Source of the DNA: a virus
Strand: one strand, 5' to 3'
DNA length: 40,395 nucleotides
Virus record (IMG/VR): IMGVR_UViG_3300045988_071833
Each line of letters opens with the position of its first letter. The first letter of the stretch is position 1. A program made the position numbers and the translations under genes. Positions 2,767-40,395 of the stretch are shown here, piece after piece. The notes below the pieces were generated by a model. It worked only from the letters and a program-made list of their open reading frames with translations. It searched no databases and had not been told where the DNA came from.

Positions 2767-3047
2767 TGGATAGCATTTTACAGGGCGATACGCGAGAGTG
2801 CTACCTCACAGGGGCAACAGATGGGCTCCATAGACATCATATTTATTTCGGCAATCCTAACCGCAAAATCAGCGAGGCAAACGGGTTCTGGGTATGGCTC
2901 CGCTGGGACTGGCACAATGGTGCCGAGTATGGAGTGCATTTTAACAGAGACCTGGACTTAAAGCTTAAGCGGGAGTGCCAAGAGAAATACGAGGAGACAC
3001 ACAGTCGGGAAGAATTTCGAAAACTGATCGGGAAAAGTTACTTATAG
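2766..3047 (+). CDS. Small HNH-motif (His-Me finger-like) protein
   Basis: ATG overlaps the upstream TGA. Sequence LHRHHIYFGNPNRKISEANGFWVWLRWDWHNGAEYGVHFN. Confidence 0.55.
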   Translation: MDSILQGDTRECYLTGATDGLHRHHIYFGNPNRKISEANGFWVWLRWDWHNGAEYGVHFNRDLDLKLKRECQEKYEETHSREEFRKLIGKSYL

Positions 3048-6393: not shown

Positions 6394-6752
6394 TGGATAT
6401 TGATAAGCTGATTGAGGCCATAAGGCTGTGCGGGAGTCAGCCGAACGTCCGGCAGTGCAGAAATTACGCTTACTATGCGGGCGGGGATATGAGCAGATGC
6501 ATCCCGCGCATGACGGCGGATGCCTCCGCCGCGCTCTCCGCGCTCCGGGCCGAGCTGGAGCAAGTGAAGCGTGAGAGGGATGCGGCGTATAAACTACTTG
6601 GTGGAGAGCCCCCAAAGACCTGTAAGACCTGTGTCCTTTGGGGTGGAAACGGATGGGGACAGTACCAAATTGGGTACTGTGACGGAGATGACAACCCGCA
6701 TGGGCCGAATGATTTTTGTTCCAGGCATCACGGGCCGCAGAAGGAGCTATGA
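6393..6752 (+). CDS. Hypothetical Cys-rich protein with a central coiled coil
   Basis: AGGAGGAGG RBS plus GTG 6393 overlapping the upstream TAG. Sequence ALSALRAELEQVKRERDAAYKLL...CKTCVLWGG. Confidence 0.55.
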   Translation: MDIDKLIEAIRLCGSQPNVRQCRNYAYYAGGDMSRCIPRMTADASAALSALRAELEQVKRERDAAYKLLGGEPPKTCKTCVLWGGNGWGQYQIGYCDGDDNPHGPNDFCSRHHGPQKEL

Positions 6753-7624
6753 AAATCGGACTCATTGATGTGGATGGGCATAGTGGGTTCCCAAATTTGG
6801 CGTTGATGCGCTTGTCGGCATGGCATAAAGCAAGAGGCGACGCCGTGGAGTGGTGGGATGGGTTCAAAGTCTACGACCGGGTATATATGAGCAAGGTCTT
6901 TACGTTTTCGCCGGACGTGGAGACCATCATCCGGGCGGATGAGGTGATCCGCGGTGGTACTGGTTACAAAGACTACGGCAGCCTCCCGCGAGAGATAGAG
7001 GCCACCTTGCCGGATTACAGCATCTATCCGCAGGTCAAGCACGCGATCGGCTTTTTGACCCGTGGATGTATCCGCAACTGCCCGTGGTGCATCGTCCCGC
7101 GCAAGGAGGGGGCAATACGCCCGGACTTTACATGGGAGAAAATAAAGCGATCGGACAGCCGTGATTTGGTGCTCTTGGACAACAATGTGCTGGCACACCC
7201 GCATGGGATAGAGCAAATCGACTCAATGGGTCATGCGCAGGTACGGGTGGACTTTAATCAGGGGTTGGATGCCAGACTAATTACAACGGACGTAGCCCGA
7301 ATGCTGTCAAAGCTGCGCTGGATACGGTTTGTGCGCCTGAGCTGCGACACAGCGTCAATGCTCCCGGTGATCGAGCAGGCGGTAGCCTATATGAGAGAGG
7401 CGGGAATCGCGCCGTTCCGATTTTGGTGTTACATGCTGGTACAGGATGTGGAGGAGGCTCACCGGCGCGCACTGGCACTGGACAAGCTGGATATTATCCC
7501 ATTTGCTCAGCCGTACAGAGATTATGACGGCGGTGAGCCAACTAAAGAGCAGCGCAGGTTTGCAAGATGGGTTAATATGCGAGCCGCATTTAAATCGTGC
7601 AAATGGGAGGACTTCTCGGGATGA
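6749..7624 (+). CDS. Phage radical SAM enzyme (substrate unknown)
   Basis: ATGA overlap and AAGGAG RBS. CIRNCPWC is a CxxxCxxC 4Fe-4S/SAM motif. N-terminus MKIGLIDVDGHSGFPNLALMRLSAWHK is Rossmann/B12-binding-like. Confidence 0.8.
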   Translation: MKIGLIDVDGHSGFPNLALMRLSAWHKARGDAVEWWDGFKVYDRVYMSKVFTFSPDVETIIRADEVIRGGTGYKDYGSLPREIEATLPDYSIYPQVKHAIGFLTRGCIRNCPWCIVPRKEGAIRPDFTWEKIKRSDSRDLVLLDNNVLAHPHGIEQIDSMGHAQVRVDFNQGLDARLITTDVARMLSKLRWIRFVRLSCDTASMLPVIEQAVAYMREAGIAPFRFWCYMLVQDVEEAHRRALALDKLDIIPFAQPYRDYDGGEPTKEQRRFARWVNMRAAFKSCKWEDFSG

Positions 7625-8649: not shown

Positions 8650-8943
8650 ATGGCTATGCGAAGAATGCACTGCTGCCTGGACATTGAGGGCGGTATCCGC
8701 AACGCAAAGGACATTAAGGGGTGCATAACCATGTGGAGGATGACAGTGAATAACCTGTTTTTTGCCGACGCTGAGTGCCCCAACTGTGGTGGAAACTGTG
8801 GAAACGGAGGGCGTGGGGATACTTTTTATTGCCCCTCCTGCGGCTGGAAGGGGAAAATCGATGGAGCCGAAAATGATATGAAATTTATCGAGGAGTATAT
8901 CCGGTTTTGCATGGAACGGGATAAGGAGGACGAGCATGGATAG
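8650..8943 (+). CDS. Zinc-ribbon protein
   Basis: CPNCGGNCG...YCPSCGWKG; GAGGTGG RBS. Confidence 0.5.
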   Translation: MAMRRMHCCLDIEGGIRNAKDIKGCITMWRMTVNNLFFADAECPNCGGNCGNGGRGDTFYCPSCGWKGKIDGAENDMKFIEEYIRFCMERDKEDEHG

Positions 8944-9274
8944 CCTGGTTGTTGCTGAGGCTGTGTCCCCTAACCGTGGGCCGAGAGGGATCGGAGCAGA
9001 TGCCAAAGCCGACGCCGGAAAGCCGCGGCCCACGCTGGTACCGGTCTCGCTGATCGAGGCCGTGGCAGCGGTACGCATGTTTGGGTGCGCCAAGTACCAC
9101 GATCCGGACAACTGGCGTCAGGTTGAGCCGCAGCGCTACAGGGATGCTTTGTACCGGCACTGGCTGGAATATCTCAAAGGCGAGCAGTACGATCAGGAGA
9201 GCGGCTTGCCTCATTTGTGGCATTTGGCCTGCAATGCGGCGTTTTTGATTGAAATGGAGGGTGGGGAAACGTGA
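8936..9274 (+). CDS. DUF5664-like protein (dATP/dGTP diphosphohydrolase N-terminal-like domain)
   Basis: FGCAKYHDPDNWRQV...YRDALYRHWLEYLKGEQYDQESGLPHLWHLACNAAFLIE resembles the KYG..NW...RH....D.ESG..HL.H signature. Confidence 0.5.
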   Translation: MDSLVVAEAVSPNRGPRGIGADAKADAGKPRPTLVPVSLIEAVAAVRMFGCAKYHDPDNWRQVEPQRYRDALYRHWLEYLKGEQYDQESGLPHLWHLACNAAFLIEMEGGET

Positions 9275-9536: not shown

Positions 9537-9818
9537 TTACAGCAGCTCCCTCACATCCACGTCCAGCGCGTCCGCCAGAGCCAGAGCATTGGTGAGGGTG
9601 ACGTTGCCCATCTTACCCTCGCCCTGCTCGATGCGCTGGATCTGTCTTTTATTGACGCCGGACCGCGCTGATAGCTCGTCGAGGCTCATGTGCTCACGGC
9701 GGCGGGCCCACTCCAGATTTGTGATTGGCTTATTGCGGCAGTCGCGTCCGTAAGACACCAGGGAGCAGACGGTACAGTCGCCGTCTGCCCGGATGCAGTC
9801 TCCGTATTTTCGCCTCAT
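9537..9818 (-). CDS. XRE-family HTH regulator with N-terminal Cys4 cluster (aca-like position at the operon end)
   Basis: C-terminus MSLDELSARSGVNKRQIQRIEQGEGKMGNVTLTNALALADAL is an HTH_3 fold. N-terminus has CIRADGDCTVC...C. ATGA-coupled to the upstream gene. Confidence 0.8.
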   Translation of the reverse strand: MRRKYGDCIRADGDCTVCSLVSYGRDCRNKPITNLEWARRREHMSLDELSARSGVNKRQIQRIEQGEGKMGNVTLTNALALADALDVDVRELL

Positions 9819-10787: not shown

Positions 10788-10816
10788 ATTATACGCCAAT
10801 ATTGCCGGATTGTCAA
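10788..10816 (-). promoter_or_regulatory. Perfect consensus sigma-A/sigma-70 promoter (TTGACA-17-TATAAT)
   Basis: Minus strand reads gtaTTGACAatccggcaatattggcgTATAATataat. Palindromes caatattg (10797-10804, in the spacer) and gatctgccagatc (10760-10772, in the 5' UTR). Confidence 0.75.
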
Positions 10817-10862: not shown

Positions 10863-11090
10863 TTGAATGAGTTCCCGGAGCGGTTGAGGAAACTGAGGGA
10901 GAGCAGGCGTCCGGTGCGGAGTATGGCGGTGACATCCGAACTGATGGGGCTAAGCCACGATGCGCTAAGGCGGTATGAGCGCGGGGAGCGAGAGCCAGGA
11001 TTGACGGAGCTAAAACTGATAGCCAATTATTACTACGTCAGTTTGGACGATCTTTGTTGGGATGATGGAGAGCAGGAACACAATCTTTAA
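10863..11090 (+). CDS. XRE/Cro-type HTH transcriptional regulator
   Basis: GGGAGGG RBS plus TTG start. FPERLRKLRESRRPVRSMAVTSELMGLSHDALRRYERGEREPGLTELKLIANYYYVSLDDL. Extended -10 TGcTAAAAT at 10824-10832. Confidence 0.75.
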   Translation: MNEFPERLRKLRESRRPVRSMAVTSELMGLSHDALRRYERGEREPGLTELKLIANYYYVSLDDLCWDDGEQEHNL

Positions 11091-11672
11091 ACATATCGCA
11101 AAAATATTTTGTACATGCCTCCATTTGGAGGCATAATAACCGGGTCATATGCGACAATGGGAGCGTGGAGGCGAATGCCTCCCGCTCCCTTCCATTTCCT
11201 CCTCCTTTCCCATCGCCGGGCCTCCCTCCCGGCAACGGCCCGCAGGCAAAGCCGTAAACCTGCAACATAGCCCGTAAGGGCTATATGTCCTTGTAGCTTA
11301 TGAGGTAAGAGCGGCCCCATGATCGGGGCAGAGGCCGGTTCGAGCCCGGTCGAGGGCACAGAAAACCACGCCTGCCCTGGTCTCGGGGCGGAAGCGGGGA
11401 GATGAGAGACTATCCCCGGCGCGCTTGCCAGCTGAAAACTGCCGCAGTCGAGTGGCACGGGCGGAAAGCGCCGTGTCCGGAGACTAACCCAATTATCCGG
11501 GGCGGTGTGACAATCTAAGCGGGGCAGCGCATATATGCCGCGCCTATCCGCATGAGGATATGGACGGCCCTATGGATGTGCCCCGAGCTGCGGCGGGTGG
11601 CCCGCAACAAATCAGGAGAGGGCGGGGAGCGGGGGCCGCTCTCTCCTCCGAAAAAACGAAACCATATGAGAG
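11091..11672 (+). ncRNA. Candidate large structured non-coding RNA (ROOL/GOLLD-like class or novel)
   Basis: About 580 nt with no plus-strand ORF >=60 aa. Multiple GC-rich hairpins, some capped by plus-strand GNRA loops (11267-11284 GTAA; 11456-11475 GAAA). A tRNA-like cloverleaf is embedded. Confidence 0.45.
11287..11358 (+). tRNA. tRNA-like cloverleaf with an aberrant 6-nt anticodon loop (not a canonical decoder; no encoded CCA)
   Basis: 7-bp acceptor stem gtccttg/cgagggc. U8, D-stem gctt/gagc, A14, G18G19, A21. Anticodon stem gcccc/ggggc with loop atgatc. 4-nt variable loop. T-arm gccgg-TTCGAGC-ccggt. Discriminator A. Confidence 0.5.
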
Positions 11673-11681
11673 GTGGCGATC

Positions 11682-12104
11682 ATGGCTGCGCGTTTGACGG
11701 ATAAGCAGAAAAAGAAAATAGTGGCTGATTATCTGGAATGTGAAAGCTATAACGCCACGGCAAAGAAAAACGGCGTTTGCGGGCAGACCGTGCGCCGTGT
11801 TGTCGAAGAATCTCAAGGATTCACTGAAAATCTCAAACGAAAAAAAGACGAAAACACCGCTGATATTATCGCTTACATGGAAAGCAAGCGTGGAATCGTG
11901 TGTGAGATATTGGGAAAAGGGCTTGAAGCGCTGAACAGCCCGGACAAACTGAGAGAAGCAACTCCGGCGCAGATCACGACGGCAATGGGGACGCTGATAG
12001 ACAAGTGGACAGCCATAAGCGGTGGGCCTGCCGATACCGCCAAAGAGGACGATTTGAGTAAGAGCCTGAAGGAAATGGCGGAAGGGCTGGAAAGCGATGA
12101 ATGA
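11682..12104 (+). CDS. terS: Terminase small subunit (alternative GTG start at 11673)
   Basis: AGGTGG RBS 5 nt upstream. N-terminal HTH (LTDKQKKKIVADYLECESYNATAKKNGVCGQTVRRVV). Lies upstream of terL. Confidence 0.75.
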   Translation: MAARLTDKQKKKIVADYLECESYNATAKKNGVCGQTVRRVVEESQGFTENLKRKKDENTADIIAYMESKRGIVCEILGKGLEALNSPDKLREATPAQITTAMGTLIDKWTAISGGPADTAKEDDLSKSLKEMAEGLESDE

Positions 12105-12216
12105 TAGATTTGCAAACATACGCGCAATTATCAAGCAAACCAAAAATCCGAGTAAAAAGACGAAACAGCTCATCGAGAAGTTTGAAGCTCTTTATCGTGA
12201 ATTGGGAAGCAAATGA
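12097..12216 (+). CDS. Possible 39-aa ORF bridging terS and terL
   Basis: MNDRFANIRAIIKQTKNPSKKTKQLIEKFEALYRELGSK; overlaps the terS stop and the terL start. Confidence 0.35.
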   Translation: MNDRFANIRAIIKQTKNPSKKTKQLIEKFEALYRELGSK

Positions 12217-13439
12217 TTAGCCCAAAGCAAAAGAAAATCCTCGCTTTTTCATATAGCCGCTATGACGCGCTGATCTGCGATGGAGCCGTTCGAAGCGGCA
12301 AAACCTCCATCATGATATGGGCGTTTGTTGACTGGGCCATGCGCGAGTTTAACGGCCAGAAATTCGGGATTTGCGGTAAGACCGTGGATTCAGCCACAAA
12401 GAACATCATCATCCCGTTTATCTCCATGAGCCTTGCAAAAGAACGCTACACCATGCGCTGGCGGCGCTCTGACAAGCTGCTGGAAGTCCGGCGGGGATTT
12501 ACCACGAATTACTTTGAGGTGTTCGGCGGCAAAGACGAGGCGTCTTTTATGCTCATCCAGGGCCGGACGCTGGCCGGGGTGCTGCTGGATGAGGTGGCGC
12601 TGATGCCGGAGAGTTTCGTCAACCAGGCGCTGGCCCGGTGTTCAGTCGCCGGGGCGCGGCTGTGGTTCAGTTGTAACCCGGACAATCCCAATCACTGGTT
12701 TTACAAGGAGTGGATACAGAGACGTGAAGCACACAACGCACTGTATCTGCACTTCTCCATGGATGACAACCCATCACTGTCCGAGGAAACAAAGGCCCGG
12801 TATCACAGCATGTATTCCGGCGTGTTTTACGAGCGGTATGTGCTGGGGCGGTGGGTGCTGGCCGAGGGATTGATTTACCCGATGTTCGGACCAAATTGCA
12901 TTACAGAAGAGACACCGGAGAGCGGCGTGTATTATATCTCCATCGACTATGGCACACTGAATCCGTTTTCCGCTGGCCTGTGGTGCGTGACGGACAAAGA
13001 GGCAGTGCGCATCCGGGAATATTATTACTCCGGGCGGGATACGCAGCAGTCCAAGACAGACGAGGAATATTACACGGATTTGGAACAGCTGGCCGGGGAG
13101 CTTCTGATAGAAACAGTGGTTATTGACCCGTCGGCGGCGTCTTTCATCGAAACCATCCGACGGCATGGCCGGTTTTCGGTGCGAAAGGCCAAAAACGATG
13201 TGGTCAACGGGATTGTGACCACTTCCCGCTATCTGAAAAACGGGAAGATCAAAATCCATTCCTCCTGCAAGGACGCCATCCGGGAGTTTGGCCTTTACCG
13301 CTGGGACGAAAAGGCCAAGGAGGACAAGCCGATCAAGGAGAATGACCACGCCTTAGACGAAATAAGGTATTTTGCCGAGACAGTTTTAAGATATAAATTC
13401 GCGGCCGACGATGGAGCAAGGCCGATACTGCCGCTGTAA
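12213..13439 (+). CDS. terL: Terminase large subunit (PBSX/Terminase_3-like)
   Basis: Walker A CDGAVRSGKTS; Walker B-like VLLDEVA; C-terminal nuclease region IDPSAASFIETIRR...NDHALDEIRYF. Confidence 0.9.
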   Translation: MISPKQKKILAFSYSRYDALICDGAVRSGKTSIMIWAFVDWAMREFNGQKFGICGKTVDSATKNIIIPFISMSLAKERYTMRWRRSDKLLEVRRGFTTNYFEVFGGKDEASFMLIQGRTLAGVLLDEVALMPESFVNQALARCSVAGARLWFSCNPDNPNHWFYKEWIQRREAHNALYLHFSMDDNPSLSEETKARYHSMYSGVFYERYVLGRWVLAEGLIYPMFGPNCITEETPESGVYYISIDYGTLNPFSAGLWCVTDKEAVRIREYYYSGRDTQQSKTDEEYYTDLEQLAGELLIETVVIDPSAASFIETIRRHGRFSVRKAKNDVVNGIVTTSRYLKNGKIKIHSSCKDAIREFGLYRWDEKAKEDKPIKENDHALDEIRYFAETVLRYKFAADDGARPILPL

Positions 13440-16255: not shown

Positions 16256-16273
16256 CCGCCCCCGAAGGGGCGG
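16256..16273 (-). terminator. Terminator hairpin for the hicAB operon
   Basis: ccgcccc-cgaa-ggggcgg, followed by a T-run on the minus strand (complement of aaaaat at 16251-16255). Confidence 0.6.
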
Positions 16274-16279
16274 CGGGAA

Positions 16280-16678
16280 TCATCCGACACTCAACCTGGA
16301 CAGCAGGCCTTCTTGCAATACCTGGGAACAGTTGATGCCCCGTTTATCCGCAAGGTCTGCCATCCAGGACGGAAGAGATACATTTTTTCGGACGGCCCTT
16401 GTGTCGGTGGCGGCGCGGTATGCAAGTGTGTCAACCTGGATGAGAGACAGCACATCGGTTGGTTCATGCTCCAACGCGGCCTGTGGAGTGGCACTTGGAA
16501 TGGGAAGAGATTTATCTTCCGCCACTACAAGCCAACCGGAGGCGGCATCGGTGATTTGCTCAATAGCGTCTTCGATGCTGTCTCCTGTGGTGACGCAGCC
16601 GGGAAGGTCGGGAATACGGGCGTACAGTTCGGTTCCATCCTCTGTGGGGGTAAAGATCGCGGTATAGGTATATTTCAT
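16280..16678 (-). CDS. hicB: HicB-family antitoxin with C-terminal RHH-like DNA-binding tail
   Basis: GGAGG RBS. MKYTYTAIFTPTEDGTELYARIPDLPGCVTTGDSIEDAIEQITDAASGWL. C-terminus RKNVSLPSWMADLADKRGINCSQVLQEGL. Confidence 0.85.
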   Translation of the reverse strand: MKYTYTAIFTPTEDGTELYARIPDLPGCVTTGDSIEDAIEQITDAASGWLVVAEDKSLPIPSATPQAALEHEPTDVLSLIQVDTLAYRAATDTRAVRKNVSLPSWMADLADKRGINCSQVLQEGLLSRLSVG

Positions 16679-16716
16679 AATAGCCTCCATGATAGCAAGG
16701 AGGTCAAGGGGCTTTA

Positions 16717-16911
16717 TTAGCCCCTATCCCTCCGGTTTTGTTTGATTTCCTTGCGTATGTATCGGAGCGTATTTTCGGTGAACTTGTGGCGCTTGACGGG
16801 GATGGAGCATTTCAATCCTGGATTGTAGTAGATGTCGTGGTTGGTTCCGTGCCGCTCGAATCTGTATCCGCCTTTGTCAAGCTCTTGAATCGCCTGATCT
16901 CTTGGAGTCAT
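16717..16911 (-). CDS. hicA: HicA-family mRNA interferase toxin
   Basis: LDKGGYRFERHGTNHDIYYNPGLKCSIPVKRHKFTENTLRYIRKEI; 64 aa; GGGAGG RBS. Confidence 0.85.
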   Translation of the reverse strand: MTPRDQAIQELDKGGYRFERHGTNHDIYYNPGLKCSIPVKRHKFTENTLRYIRKEIKQNRRDRG

Positions 16912-16933
16912 AGCGCACCTCCCCTATGATTTT

Positions 16934-16961
16934 ATTATACACAGTTTTACACAAAAGTCAA
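16934..16961 (-). promoter_or_regulatory. Promoter for hicAB (TTGACT-16-TATAAT)
   Basis: Minus strand reads TTGACTtttgtgtaaaactgtgTATAATaaaatcatagGGGAGGtgcgctATG. Confidence 0.65.
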
Positions 16962-29851: not shown

Positions 29852-29870
29852 TTTCACAAAACACGCACAC

Positions 29871-29909
29871 GCCTTCACTGGATTGCCACCCAGTGGAGGC
29901 GATTTTTTT
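29871..29909 (+). terminator. Strong rho-independent terminator ending the late operon
   Basis: gccttcactgg-attgccac-ccagtggaggc followed by gattttttt. Confidence 0.85.
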
Positions 29910-39786: not shown

Positions 39787-40395
39787 ATTACAAAGGTATG
39801 GACGCAAACATGCGGTGCAGAGGCGCCCAGTATGAGGTCGGGAAAGAATATGAGACAGATAAAGCTGTAGCGTGCGAAAGAGGATTTCACGCGTGCGAAT
39901 ATCCGCTCGATGTTTTTAACTATTATCCCCCGGCGACAAGCCGATATTTTATCGTCGAGCAAGGAGGGGCGCTCAGCAAATCTGGTGGTGATACAAAAGT
40001 TGCATCGACAAAGATTAAGATTGCGGCAGAAATAGGCATTGCAGAATTGGTAAAAGCATCCGTTAAATATACAAAGGCACGTGCCAAAGAAGAGCCCGGA
40101 GGCCACGCTACGGGCAAACGGGGCGCTGCGTCTGCTACGGGCGACTTTGGCGCTGCGTCTGCTACGGGAGACCAGGGCGCTGCATCTGCTACGGGAGACC
40201 AGGGCGCTGCATCTGCTACGGGAGACCAGGGCGCTGCGTCTGCTACGGGCGACTTTGGCGCTGCGTCTGCTACGGGCGACTTTGGCGCTGCGTCTGCTAC
40301 GGGCTACCAGGGCGCTGCATCTGCTACGGGCGACTTTGGCGCTGCGTCTGCTACGGGCAACTTTGGCGCTGCGTCTGCTACGGGCTACCAGGGCG
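39783..40395 (+). CDS. N-terminal part of the nonapeptide-repeat (beta-helix-like) protein; runs off the window end and continues at 1..296
   Basis: ATGA overlap with the SLT gene. [50 protein letters not shown], then (G)AASATGxxG x ~11. Confidence 0.8.
   Translation, partial: [204 protein letters not shown]
40102..40395. repeat. 27-bp in-frame tandem repeat, ~11 copies here (about 12-13 in the closed circle)
   Basis: gcgtctgctacgggcgactttggcgct and variants (gaccag, taccag, aacttt). Confidence 0.9.

Follow-up and report, generated by a model that had tools for sequence, protein, structure and literature searches.

A noncoding region at the head of the late operon

We analyzed the DNA between a helix-turn-helix (HTH) gene and the small terminase gene terS in IMG/VR virus record IMGVR_UViG_3300045988_071833, a stretch of 40,395 nt referred to here as the window. 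The window is a temperate phage genome, complete and assembled as a circle whose ends overlap by 52 nt; it encodes a serine integrase and carries a replication module. The region of interest (positions 11091-11681) is bounded on its 5' side by the stop codon of the HTH gene and on its 3' side by the terS ATG at 11682. We compared the upstream regions of terS relatives and ran three pattern scans, and the modules described below are defined by these comparisons. Taken at the level of sequence, they indicate that the region is very probably a mosaic of small RNA modules with an optional tRNA-like insert, which together form the noncoding head of the late operon. The genes that frame it, and the ribosome-binding site of terS, are as follows.

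10863-11090, plus strand: XRE-family HTH gene, 75 aa (Pfam HTH_3, 8.5e-09, and HTH_31; PHROG annotation, transcriptional regulator)
11668-11676, plus strand: terS ribosome-binding site GAGAGGUGG, preceding the ATG at 11682
11682-12104, plus strand: small terminase gene terS, from the list of open reading frames (ORFs), with 558 relatives in IMG/VR
12213-13439, plus strand: TerL, the gene after terS (Pfam Terminase_6N/6C)

An SPP1-type portal gene lies downstream of TerL. The initial annotation, made from the sequence alone, had reported no plus-strand ORF reaching 60 aa in the region, and this held, the largest ORFs on that strand within 11091-11681 being 53, 50, 45, 42, and 38 aa long. Gene calling likewise placed no gene in the HTH-to-terS gap in six of six contigs encoding an identical TerL. 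The two longer minus-strand ORFs (123 aa at 11087-11458 and 209 aa antisense to terS) had no Pfam match, and they cannot be conserved because relatives differ from the window by indels of 5, 29, and 250 nt.

Among host-assigned cultured phages, the nearest TerL was 55% identical (an Eggerthella phage), followed by those of Lactobacillales phages at 48 to 49%; one uncultured virus record encodes a TerL 69% identical to that of the window, and the index of the assembly collection lists an identical TerL for 217 blocks. A blastn search of GenBank phages (50,697 records) with the region gave no match, and a scan of 596 Gb of contigs with the 15-mer TGCGACAATGGGAGC returned chance matches only, the pattern being too short.

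The region differs in length and content between otherwise identical phages

In phages with a TerL identical to that of the window, the gap between the HTH gene and terS measures 340, 563, or 750 nt, compared with 591 nt in the window. One of these relatives (locus L335) has an "empty" form, in which a GNRA hairpin is joined straight to ...ATATGCCGCC at the junction GGGCT^ATATGCC (carets mark junctions throughout). In three others (L337, L339, and L340), the tRNA-like part of the cargo has another anticodon arm and the insert is shorter, and two more (L336 and L338) combine the L337-type cargo with an additional module of ~190 nt. Cargo is also missing from L133 and L158, which together with L104 represent the minimal forms. 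A short repeat, AUAUGCC, recurs at the borders of the modules.

In the wider family, the distance from a conserved 5' box to the start of terS ranges from 261 to 1463 nt (loci with a start codon found), and the longer leaders may hold inserted ORFs (a methylase, an antirepressor-like gene, and an HNH gene). The first gene on the 3' side of the 5' module is also variable and includes at least three types of terS, HNH genes, small ORFs, and a methylase. The variable gaps and the optional cargo therefore mean that the 580 nt do not constitute one evolutionary or structural unit, and the reading of the region as a single giant RNA of ~580 nt is not supported, given that phages with identical TerL carry, omit, or extend the central ~250 nt. 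Moreover, the presence of the 5' module ahead of differing first genes implies that it serves the late transcript and not terS itself.

A conserved 5' RNA module is maintained by compensatory changes

The 5' module spans positions 11149-11286 (~138 nt; z = -5.05) and consists of the following elements.

11149-11158, plus strand: 5' box AUGCGA(C/A)AAU, invariant in 41 distinct 5' elements save for the C/A position
11159-11189, plus strand: hairpin P1, GGGAGCG-U-GGAGGC/GAAU/GCCUCC-CGCUCCC, in the minimum free energy (MFE) fold
11190-11214, plus strand: pyrimidine tract UUCCAUUUCCUCCUCCUUUCCCAUC, 25 nt, free of G, with the anti-Shine-Dalgarno (anti-SD) core CCUCC/CUCCUU
11215-11233, plus strand: hairpin P2, GCCGGG-CCUCCCU-CCCGGC, in the MFE fold
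11235-11263, plus strand: H-type pseudoknot with A-rich loops, whose first helix, S1, pairs ACGGC (11235-39) with GCCGU (11251-55)
11242-46 and 11259-63, plus strand: second helix of the pseudoknot, S2, GCAGG/CCUGC
11267-11284, plus strand: GNRA hairpin AUAGCCC-GUAA-GGGCUAU, 7 bp, 2 nt ahead of the 5' end of the tRNA-like element

On sequence grounds, the transcript is likely to begin near the 5' box. The hairpin that follows it had been proposed as a 13-bp bipartite stem and is indeed present, with 7 bp, a bulged U, 6 bp, and the loop GAAU. In the RNAalifold consensus, P1 shows double changes from G-C to A-U as well as changes from C-G to U.G, and by eye the stem is kept in the divergent forms GGAGCAUG/CAUGCUCC and GAGGCGUGA/UCACGCCUC. 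The pyrimidine tract is predicted to be unpaired in both the MFE and the centroid folds of the 138-nt module, and the variants that we inspected by eye carry CCUCC or CUCCUU within it. In other lineages, the tract is always followed by a hairpin of unrelated sequence (e.g., CCCGGCAG..CUGCCGGG, CCCCGG..CCGGGG, or GCCCGCCC-UUCG-GGGCGGGC). A long-range pairing of the tract with 11614-11633, which appears in the MFE fold and as an inverted repeat, was rejected, being without covariation support.

We evaluated the pseudoknot and the GNRA hairpin across 45 distinct sequences. Taken together, the two structures were paired in 94% of cells, compared with 22 to 38% when the partners were slid, and 8 of their 17 pairs were changed on both sides. 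Within the pseudoknot, this was the case for all five pairs of S2 and for two of the five pairs of S1. Four lineage versions of S2 were found (GCGG/CCGC, GCAGG/CCUGC, GUGAG/CUCAC, and UCGGG/CCCGA). The GNRA hairpin, which the initial annotation had also identified (ATAGCCC-GTAA-GGGCTAT in DNA letters), was paired in 100% of cells, with G-C/C-G swaps at one pair and a loop that always conforms to GNRA. These compensatory changes showed that the predicted helices of the 5' module are maintained.

The combined pseudoknot/GNRA motif occurs once in the window, against 0.02 occurrences expected by chance, and the pseudoknot pattern matched more than 116 IMG/VR stretches. For roughly 69 of 140 sampled GNRA hairpins, 1 to 4 nt separate the hairpin from the 5' end of a tRNA or tRNA-like element; the remaining ones precede a "UAU^GCC" hairpin. 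A second copy of the pseudoknot at 11587-11608, hinted at by nhmmer, was searched for and discarded: it is absent within 3 mismatches, and a G-to-A change in L335 and L336 is uncompensated.

An optional cargo carries a degenerate tRNA-like element and an internal-loop motif

Between the 5' module and the 3' part of the region lies the cargo, with the following features.

11287-11535, plus strand: cargo cassette of ~250 nt (tRNA-like element, spacer hairpins, and internal-loop motif), with TATATG at both junctions
11287-11359, plus strand: degenerate tRNA-like element (ARAGORN), with a cloverleaf as its MFE fold and with acceptor, D, and T arms
11421-11530, plus strand: internal-loop motif GCGC..CCAG-CUGAAAAC-[variable hairpin]-GU-GACAAUCUAAG-CGGG..GCGC, with 33 distinct instances

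The tRNA-like cloverleaf had been read by eye on the plus strand, and ARAGORN matched it there, with a 6-nt anticodon loop. The element resembles the tRNAs of Rfam RF00005 in its cloverleaf (11287-11359) and its canonical T-loop, UUCGAGC, and relatives pass the model (30.5 to 46.9 bits), although their loops are also irregular. The window copy departs from that family in scoring below the Rfam tRNA threshold; it has a 6-nt anticodon loop offering a 2-base "anticodon" and encodes no CCA, and it does not read as a functional tRNA. Its sequence does have the features of a processing signal, namely, an acceptor stem of seven pairs, a T stem with the UUCGAGC loop, and the junction ...UAU^G, and the element is thus a predicted substrate for RNase P or RNase Z.

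We compared the tRNA-like loci of L002 (2379-2451), L003 (542-619), L004 (2562-2639), L039 (2231-2304), and L336 (1916-1986). Among near-identical phages the anticodon arm differs completely, while the acceptor, D, and T arms are kept. ARAGORN reads the 6-nt loop as "ga," reads a 4-base "aata" in L003 and L004, and reads a noncanonical 7-nt GAAGAUA in L039; other relatives have irregular anticodon loops of 7 or 8 nt by eye. This turnover could reflect relaxed constraint, if the element serves solely for processing, or else selection exerted by host defenses that target tRNAs. We also considered a T-box-like sensing of the embedded NCCA ends and rejected it, the complementarity being only 5 nt and no T-box model matching.

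The internal-loop motif (33 distinct instances in all, with subsets of 17 and 28 analyzed) spans many phage lineages, in some of which it lies away from any tRNA-like element. By eye, its flanking helices covary (CCCG/CGGG, UUCA/UGAA, UUCU/AGAA, and GCCG/CGGC), RNAalifold gives a consensus structure for it, and a comparison of L336 with L337 reveals compensatory changes in its capping hairpin. In the L050 family the motif stands just upstream of the pseudoknot, without a tRNA-like element. A hairpin at 11456-11475, which the initial annotation had described as capped by GAAA, proved to be correct as a stem, with a bulge, and incorrect as to the GNRA cap, the loop being of a GGAAA type; it lies in a lineage-specific insert.

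The slot occupied by the cargo holds other RNAs in relatives, including true tRNA-Met genes, further tRNAs, and a drum RNA. The last was found in L071, where a tRNA (1701-1770) and the drum RNA (2025-2130; RF02958, 79.7 bits) share the same position ahead of terS (at 3001), and where a copy of the CUGAAAAC/GACAAUCUAAG motif comes after the drum RNA. As judged from these sequences, the pre-terS slot gathers orphan structured RNAs. A further conserved cargo module, which includes the sequence GCUCCAAAG(U/G)(A/C)CACGGAGCUGACUGUGGAAAGACACUAUAC, was seen in L336 (~1990-2180), L039 (~2310-2560), L003, and L083 and had no Rfam match (E <= 5).

A distinct but related conserved noncoding leader of 440 to 470 nt is present in the L049-L069 family (20 loci, 91% identity; e.g., L050, 2430-2900). 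Of its two pyrimidine tracts, one, ACCUCCUUU, reproduces the 3' end of 16S rRNA exactly. Compensatory GC/AG swaps occur in a long A/U-rich hairpin of this leader, which also has the internal-loop motif and the pseudoknot, followed by tRNA-Met. An ORF of 181 aa across this leader was rejected as coding, as it runs through the tRNA gene and relatives have 1-nt and 29-nt indels.

A 3' module precedes the terS ribosome-binding site

Two hairpins follow the cargo.

11537-11568, plus strand: hairpin starting with GCCG, with the hexaloop GCAUGA (11550-11555), located after the linker AUAU and present in the centroid fold
11614-11647, plus strand: 12-bp hairpin AGGAGAGGGCGG/CCGCUCUCUCCU with a variable loop, an inverted repeat present in the centroid fold

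The GCAUGA loop is found on other stems elsewhere (CGCC/GGCG, UAUCC/GGAUA, and GUC/GAC), and the hairpin directly follows the GNRA hairpin wherever the tRNA is absent. The second hairpin, proposed as an 11-bp stem at 11615-11646, is present with arms of 12 nt that form 11 Watson-Crick pairs and one G.U pair; among L003, L004, and the window, two of its positions change from G.U to G-C. It is followed by CCGAAAAAAC and lacks a U tract, and no plus-strand terminator-like site was found in 11091-11681.

Two kinds of hairpin that are absent from the window itself recur in relatives. The first, AUAU^GCCUCUCCUCGCCGCAUGAGGCGGGCGGUGGCACCA (L104 at ~508-547, as well as L102, L039, L083, and L091), starts with G-C pairs, has a GCAUGA loop, and ends in ACCA; with a folding energy of -19 kcal/mol (z = -2.35), it resembles an acceptor-stem mini-helix with discriminator and CCA. 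The second is the shorter GCCGCCUCUCGGC-UCCA hairpin.

A palindrome upstream of the RNA changes with the HTH protein

Two further features lie between the HTH gene and the 5' box.

11110-11137, plus strand: promoter-like site TGTACA-16-CATAAT (consensus scan, 9/12), whose spacer holds the palindrome
11115-11134, no strand assigned: perfect palindrome ATGCCTCC-ATTT-GGAGGCAT, a putative operator of the adjacent HTH protein

The inverted repeat at 11115-11134 was indeed present as ATGCCTCC-ATTT-GGAGGCAT. Its assignment to the RNA was not borne out, however, as it tracks the type of HTH protein and so behaves like a DNA operator. We compared HTH proteins and palindromes in the window and in L002, L032, L039, L082, L088, L102, L104, L113, L128, and others (21 protein/palindrome combinations). 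Six of seven HTH types paired with a perfect palindrome of their own; for the seventh, the script chose another repeat than the palindrome seen by eye. Types B and B' have the common core GCCTCC..GGAGGC, and other examples include GCCTCCA-TT-TGGAGGC, CTCATAAA-GT-TTTATGAG, TCCCAC-AAAA-GTGGGA, GATTCCCT..AGGGAATC, and ATTCCTC-CTTTTT-GAGGAAT. All palindrome arms in the set are fully Watson-Crick, and the downstream RNA element is common to all types.

In relatives, a TTGNNN box occupies the same position ahead of the palindrome, and the sequence that is invariant among relatives starts at 11148/11149, downstream of it. The palindrome at 11115-11134 is thus a predicted site that is perfect, sits in a promoter-like spacer, and changes in sequence along with the HTH protein, and it is probably the DNA operator of the XRE-type HTH protein, outside the conserved RNA.

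On the other side of the HTH gene, a sigma-70-type promoter on the minus strand (10788-10816; TTGACA-17-TATAAT, 12/12) points away from that gene and heads a minus-strand block (10740-9211) that includes a second small HTH protein (9537-9818). The area just upstream of the late genes looks like a divergent regulatory switch.

Other features of the window

The late operon on the plus strand is interrupted by a minus-strand insert (16256-16961) with a strong promoter at 16961-16934 (11/12), an ORF at 16690-16280, and a terminator at 16273-16256 (7 bp, all G+C); this insert is a moron-like cassette. Upstream of the late region, 6716-7624 encodes a radical SAM domain protein (PHROG 9298, 5.5e-94) and 8936-9274 a dATP/dGTP pyrophosphohydrolase-like protein (PHROG 801). 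Tandem repeats were found at three places: a 27-nt unit in ~14 copies across the circular junction (1-97 and 40107-40395), which is probably coding; an 18-nt unit in 13.6 copies (701-945); and a 95-nt unit in 1.8 copies (35075-35251) in the lysogeny region near the integrase.

The region is probably a plus-strand RNA outside the known families

The entire region had an MFE of -269 kcal/mol and folded with z = -4.55 relative to dinucleotide shuffles. The opposite strand gave z = -4.41, and folding energy is uninformative on polarity because the two values are so close. The initial annotation had taken strand polarity as a sign of an RNA. Plus-strand RNA polarity is indeed supported by the GNRA loops, by G.U pairs (A.C if read from the opposite strand), and by the direction in which tRNAs lie in relatives; fold energy, equal on both strands, contributed nothing to it.

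The initial annotation had suggested kinship with the ornate RNAs ROOL and GOLLD, or else an undescribed RNA, and had named HEARO and raiA as further models to be searched. At Rfam 15 gathering thresholds, the window had no match to any family, and 18 related loci had no match to ROOL, GOLLD, HEARO, or raiA. At E <= 10, the interval 10900-11900 returned three chance-level matches only, and the models for ROOL, GOLLD, HEARO, raiA, drum, T-boxes, self-cleaving ribozymes, and group I-II introns had no match in the window. In the related loci and leaders, searches at gathering thresholds and at E <= 1 or E <= 5 yielded tRNAs only, plus the drum RNA of L071. With regard to HEARO, the sole HNH gene of the window is ~26 kb away on the other strand. 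Homology to these families is therefore not supported, while the suggestion of an undescribed structured RNA fared well: the region has no Rfam 15 family, its form is modular, and the covariation analysis of homologues yielded compensatory pairs in several helices, both in pair counts and in RNAalifold.

ROOL and GOLLD are known from phage locations next to tRNAs (PMC5737381, PMC12286853). The region shares with them its noncoding and structured nature, a pseudoknot and GNRA loops, and a phage or prophage location beside tRNAs, and its length of ~580 nt in the window coincides with the ROOL average. It is unlike them, however, in its variable length (340 to 750 nt behind identical TerL, and 261 to 1463 nt from 5' box to terS in the wider family), in being built of modules of 50 to 140 nt that occur independently, and in showing no sign of one closed multijunction fold; we found one supported pseudoknot and no conserved multistem junction. 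Size, host, and tRNA adjacency, cited as hallmarks of ROOL and GOLLD, carry little weight here, as size is not conserved, the nearest TerL of a host-assigned phage is 55% identical, and the tRNA-like element is part of an optional insert. The pseudoknot/GNRA tRNA-leader cap, the module made of 5' box, P1, CU tract, and P2, and the CUGAAAAC/GACAAUCUAAG internal loop are new RNA motifs in a familiar setting, and the region as a whole resembles a phage leader combined with an island of small RNAs. Fremin et al. (2023) listed many tRNA-like and cis-regulatory candidates of 30 to 151 nt from IMG/VR phages, and some of the present modules may be among them (PMC10690425).

A proposed mechanism of leader processing

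We considered how the mosaic might work. The HTH protein, bound to the palindrome, would control the late promoter, from which transcription would start near 11145, and the long leader would then be cut at tRNA-type junctions in a manner fitting RNase P. At the junctions that we inspected, U precedes the presumed cut and G nearly always follows it, with a minority of hairpins starting with A. The same U^G junction stands before tRNA-Met genes and before "GCC" hairpins; the tRNAs that follow a GNRA hairpin encode CCA, and one mini-helix, "GCC...GGC-ACCA," looks like an acceptor stem. Cutting would free a stable RNA of ~138 nt, its 3' end capped by the pseudoknot and the GNRA hairpin, as well as the cargo RNAs and a late mRNA beginning with a protective hairpin. 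The CCUCC tract, held between two hairpins, may bind Shine-Dalgarno-like sequences and thereby control translation, or it may be a loading site for a C-rich-binding protein or for Rho. The latter could equally apply because the tract is 25 nt long and free of G. A cis-acting anti-SD role at terS is weak because complementarity to its ribosome-binding site is poor by eye, and since the tract pairs poorly with that site, a role in trans or protein/Rho loading is as likely.

As a whole statement, the mosaic architecture of the late operon combined with a processing and regulatory mechanism stands at about an even chance of being correct, and the mechanism of leader processing and regulation, considered alone, is a tentative proposal that we regard as rather doubtful. 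Several points weigh against the combined statement. The pseudoknot alignment was fitted manually to the structure being proposed (with N padding, since MAFFT misregistered the loops), and the covariation comes from only ~4 deep lineages and hence from few independent events. The promoter match is weak (9/12), with a -10 element that is poor in relatives, and the final 146 nt are unexceptional in folding energy relative to shuffles (z = -0.23). The tRNA-like element of the window is degenerate and without CCA, and the "GCC" hairpins are only candidate RNase P substrates. By eye, pairing of the terS site GAGAGGUGG with CCUCC includes a U.U mismatch. Finally, we infer the start of transcription, the cuts, and the stability of the pieces.

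Parts of this scheme have precedents. The C4 RNA of phage P1 and the CI RNA of phage P4 are matured by RNase P, and 5' stem-loop stabilizers occur in Bacillus phages. Gram-positive regulatory RNAs of the RsaE/RoxS type have a C-rich seed; the 5' module is like them in displaying a single-stranded C/U-rich anti-SD tract between two stable hairpins and unlike them in that neither sequence or model similarity nor a 3' terminator or target was identified here. In the MALAT1/mascRNA system, an RNase P cut at a tRNA-like element sets the protected 3' end of the upstream RNA (PMC8457004, PMC4824109). The likeness to MALAT1/MEN-beta-mascRNA lies in a compact, protective structure 1 to 4 nt upstream of the 5' end of a tRNA or tRNA-like element, and in a tRNA-like element that keeps its acceptor and T arms without a working anticodon loop. 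The phage system differs in having an H-type pseudoknot in place of a U-rich/A-rich triple helix, in a cleavage that is deduced from sequence, in its bacterial and phage setting, and in a cap that also precedes non-tRNA hairpins. A bolder version, in which the leader is a counterpart of MALAT1/mascRNA in gut phages, with RNase P cutting at a tRNA or a nondecoding tRNA-like element and freeing a capped ~138-nt anti-SD RNA that silences translation of host or early phage messages, and with a swappable tRNA-like cargo whose rapidly changing anticodon arm makes it a decoy or countermeasure against host defenses that target tRNAs, is speculative and in our view improbable; we infer both the anti-SD regulatory RNA and its decoy cargo.

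Alternative explanations

Of the other explanations, the one that survives best, although we consider it unlikely, is that the leader is a cis-acting element of processive antitermination of the kind seen with HK022 put, Bacillus EAR, and conAn2, in which the 5' module, perhaps together with the upstream small protein, modifies polymerase and permits read-through of the ~18-kb late operon. The put RNA, by comparison, is ~70 nt long and is not known to have a long single-stranded linker. The 5' module is promoter proximal, is always co-oriented with the late genes, and is indifferent to its sequel, whether RNA cargo, ORFs, or different terS families, and a strong terminator ends the operon at 29870-29901. 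The layout is that of the bipartite conAn systems of Gram-positive mobile elements (a small gene and a structured leader of 260 to 600 nt), some of whose ConAn1 proteins also carry a fused HTH_3 domain (PMC8191782), and put likewise acts as a nascent RNA of two hairpins (PMC9378689). The leader also shares with conAn (PMC8191782) and put (PMC9378689) a promoter-proximal position, a cis orientation, and poor sequence conservation between systems. Nonetheless, plus-strand terminator-like sites are not enriched in the late operon over shuffles and none is strong, and there is no terminator between the leader and terS for the element to overcome. The HTH protein has HTH_3 and HTH_31 only, with no ConAn1 domain (PF17362), and the region has no similarity to Rfam models, including any for put or EAR that Rfam holds. 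A 20-nt inverted repeat (11181-11200/11614-11633, 80%), reminiscent of the repeat that flanks conAn2, is not maintained, its 3' arm alone changing in L337-type loci. The region is thus unlike conAn in lacking a ConAn1 domain, evident internal terminators, and a maintained flanking repeat (PMC8191782).

It is still less probable that the central part is a decaying tRNA island or recombination hot spot without a function of its own, in which only the promoter and ribosome-site flanks matter. Isogenic phages differ by gains, losses, and exchanges of cargo, the AUAUGCC repeats at the module borders would favor recombination, relatives have genuine tRNA-Met genes, additional tRNAs, and a drum RNA in the slot, and the tRNA-like element of the window, with its 6-nt anticodon loop, fails the Rfam tRNA model. 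Against this reading, the acceptor, D, and T arms remain intact and the anticodon arm alone changes. Furthermore, the version with the 6-nt loop recurs in ~10 sampled motif instances (which may include duplicate loci), the internal-loop motif keeps two invariant strands and covarying helices across distant lineages, and structure clearly constrains the 5' module and the pseudoknot.

We consider it very unlikely that 11149-11650 makes up a single large, ornate RNA that acts in trans and belongs to a new, ROOL/GOLLD-like class (e.g., a multimeric cage), its variable parts being peripheral decorations. It is true that ~500 nt pack a pseudoknot, GNRA loops, T-loop hairpins (in relatives), and a tRNA-like domain, that the self-complementary CAUG loop could form kissing contacts, and that the region as a whole folds well (z = -4.55) in a phage location beside tRNAs (PMC5737381, PMC12286853). 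Half of this RNA is dispensable in the otherwise identical phage L335, though, relatives place protein genes between the 5' and 3' modules, and the conserved units of 50 to 140 nt are mutually independent. In addition, no long-range helix joining the ends has covariation support, and no ROOL or GOLLD model matched at any threshold used.

Least credible of all is a DNA-level site with incidental RNA structure (cos/pac for the small terminase, or a protein-binding array), an alternative that the initial annotation had left standing and that is not favored: it would fit the usual pac/cos place directly upstream of terS, the G+C-rich sequence with many inverted repeats, the equal fold energy of both strands, and the palindrome at 11115-11134, which does behave as a DNA site, but it does not account for compensatory pairing that includes the pseudoknot, for G.U pairs valid on the plus strand only, for strand-specific GNRA loops and tRNA orientation, or for contig ends in relatives that are scattered 184 to 2571 nt from terS without a fixed end, and a terminase recognition site is not expected because one and the same 5' module stands ahead of nonterminase genes and of three or more unrelated terS families. 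The window is itself uninformative on DNA ends because its assembly is circular, with the 52-nt overlap elsewhere in the genome.

Implications for phage late transcripts

The reading of the region as a mosaic of small RNA modules at the head of the late operon removes a false lead, in that the region is not a relative of ROOL or GOLLD. It also brings to light a family of structured modules that is common in metagenome-derived phage contigs, sits at the start of late expression, and is absent from Rfam. The matched pairs of HTH proteins and palindromes constitute a natural set of regulators and operators and offer a handle on late-promoter control in uncultured phages. A pseudoknot/GNRA cap that abuts the 5' ends of tRNAs suggests that phage late transcripts may undergo tRNA-punctuated processing, and this could be general. 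The same could hold for the display of an anti-SD tract between two hairpins and for the swapping of tRNAs, tRNA-like elements, and other small RNAs (the orphan drum RNA among them) at one slot in phages that are otherwise identical.

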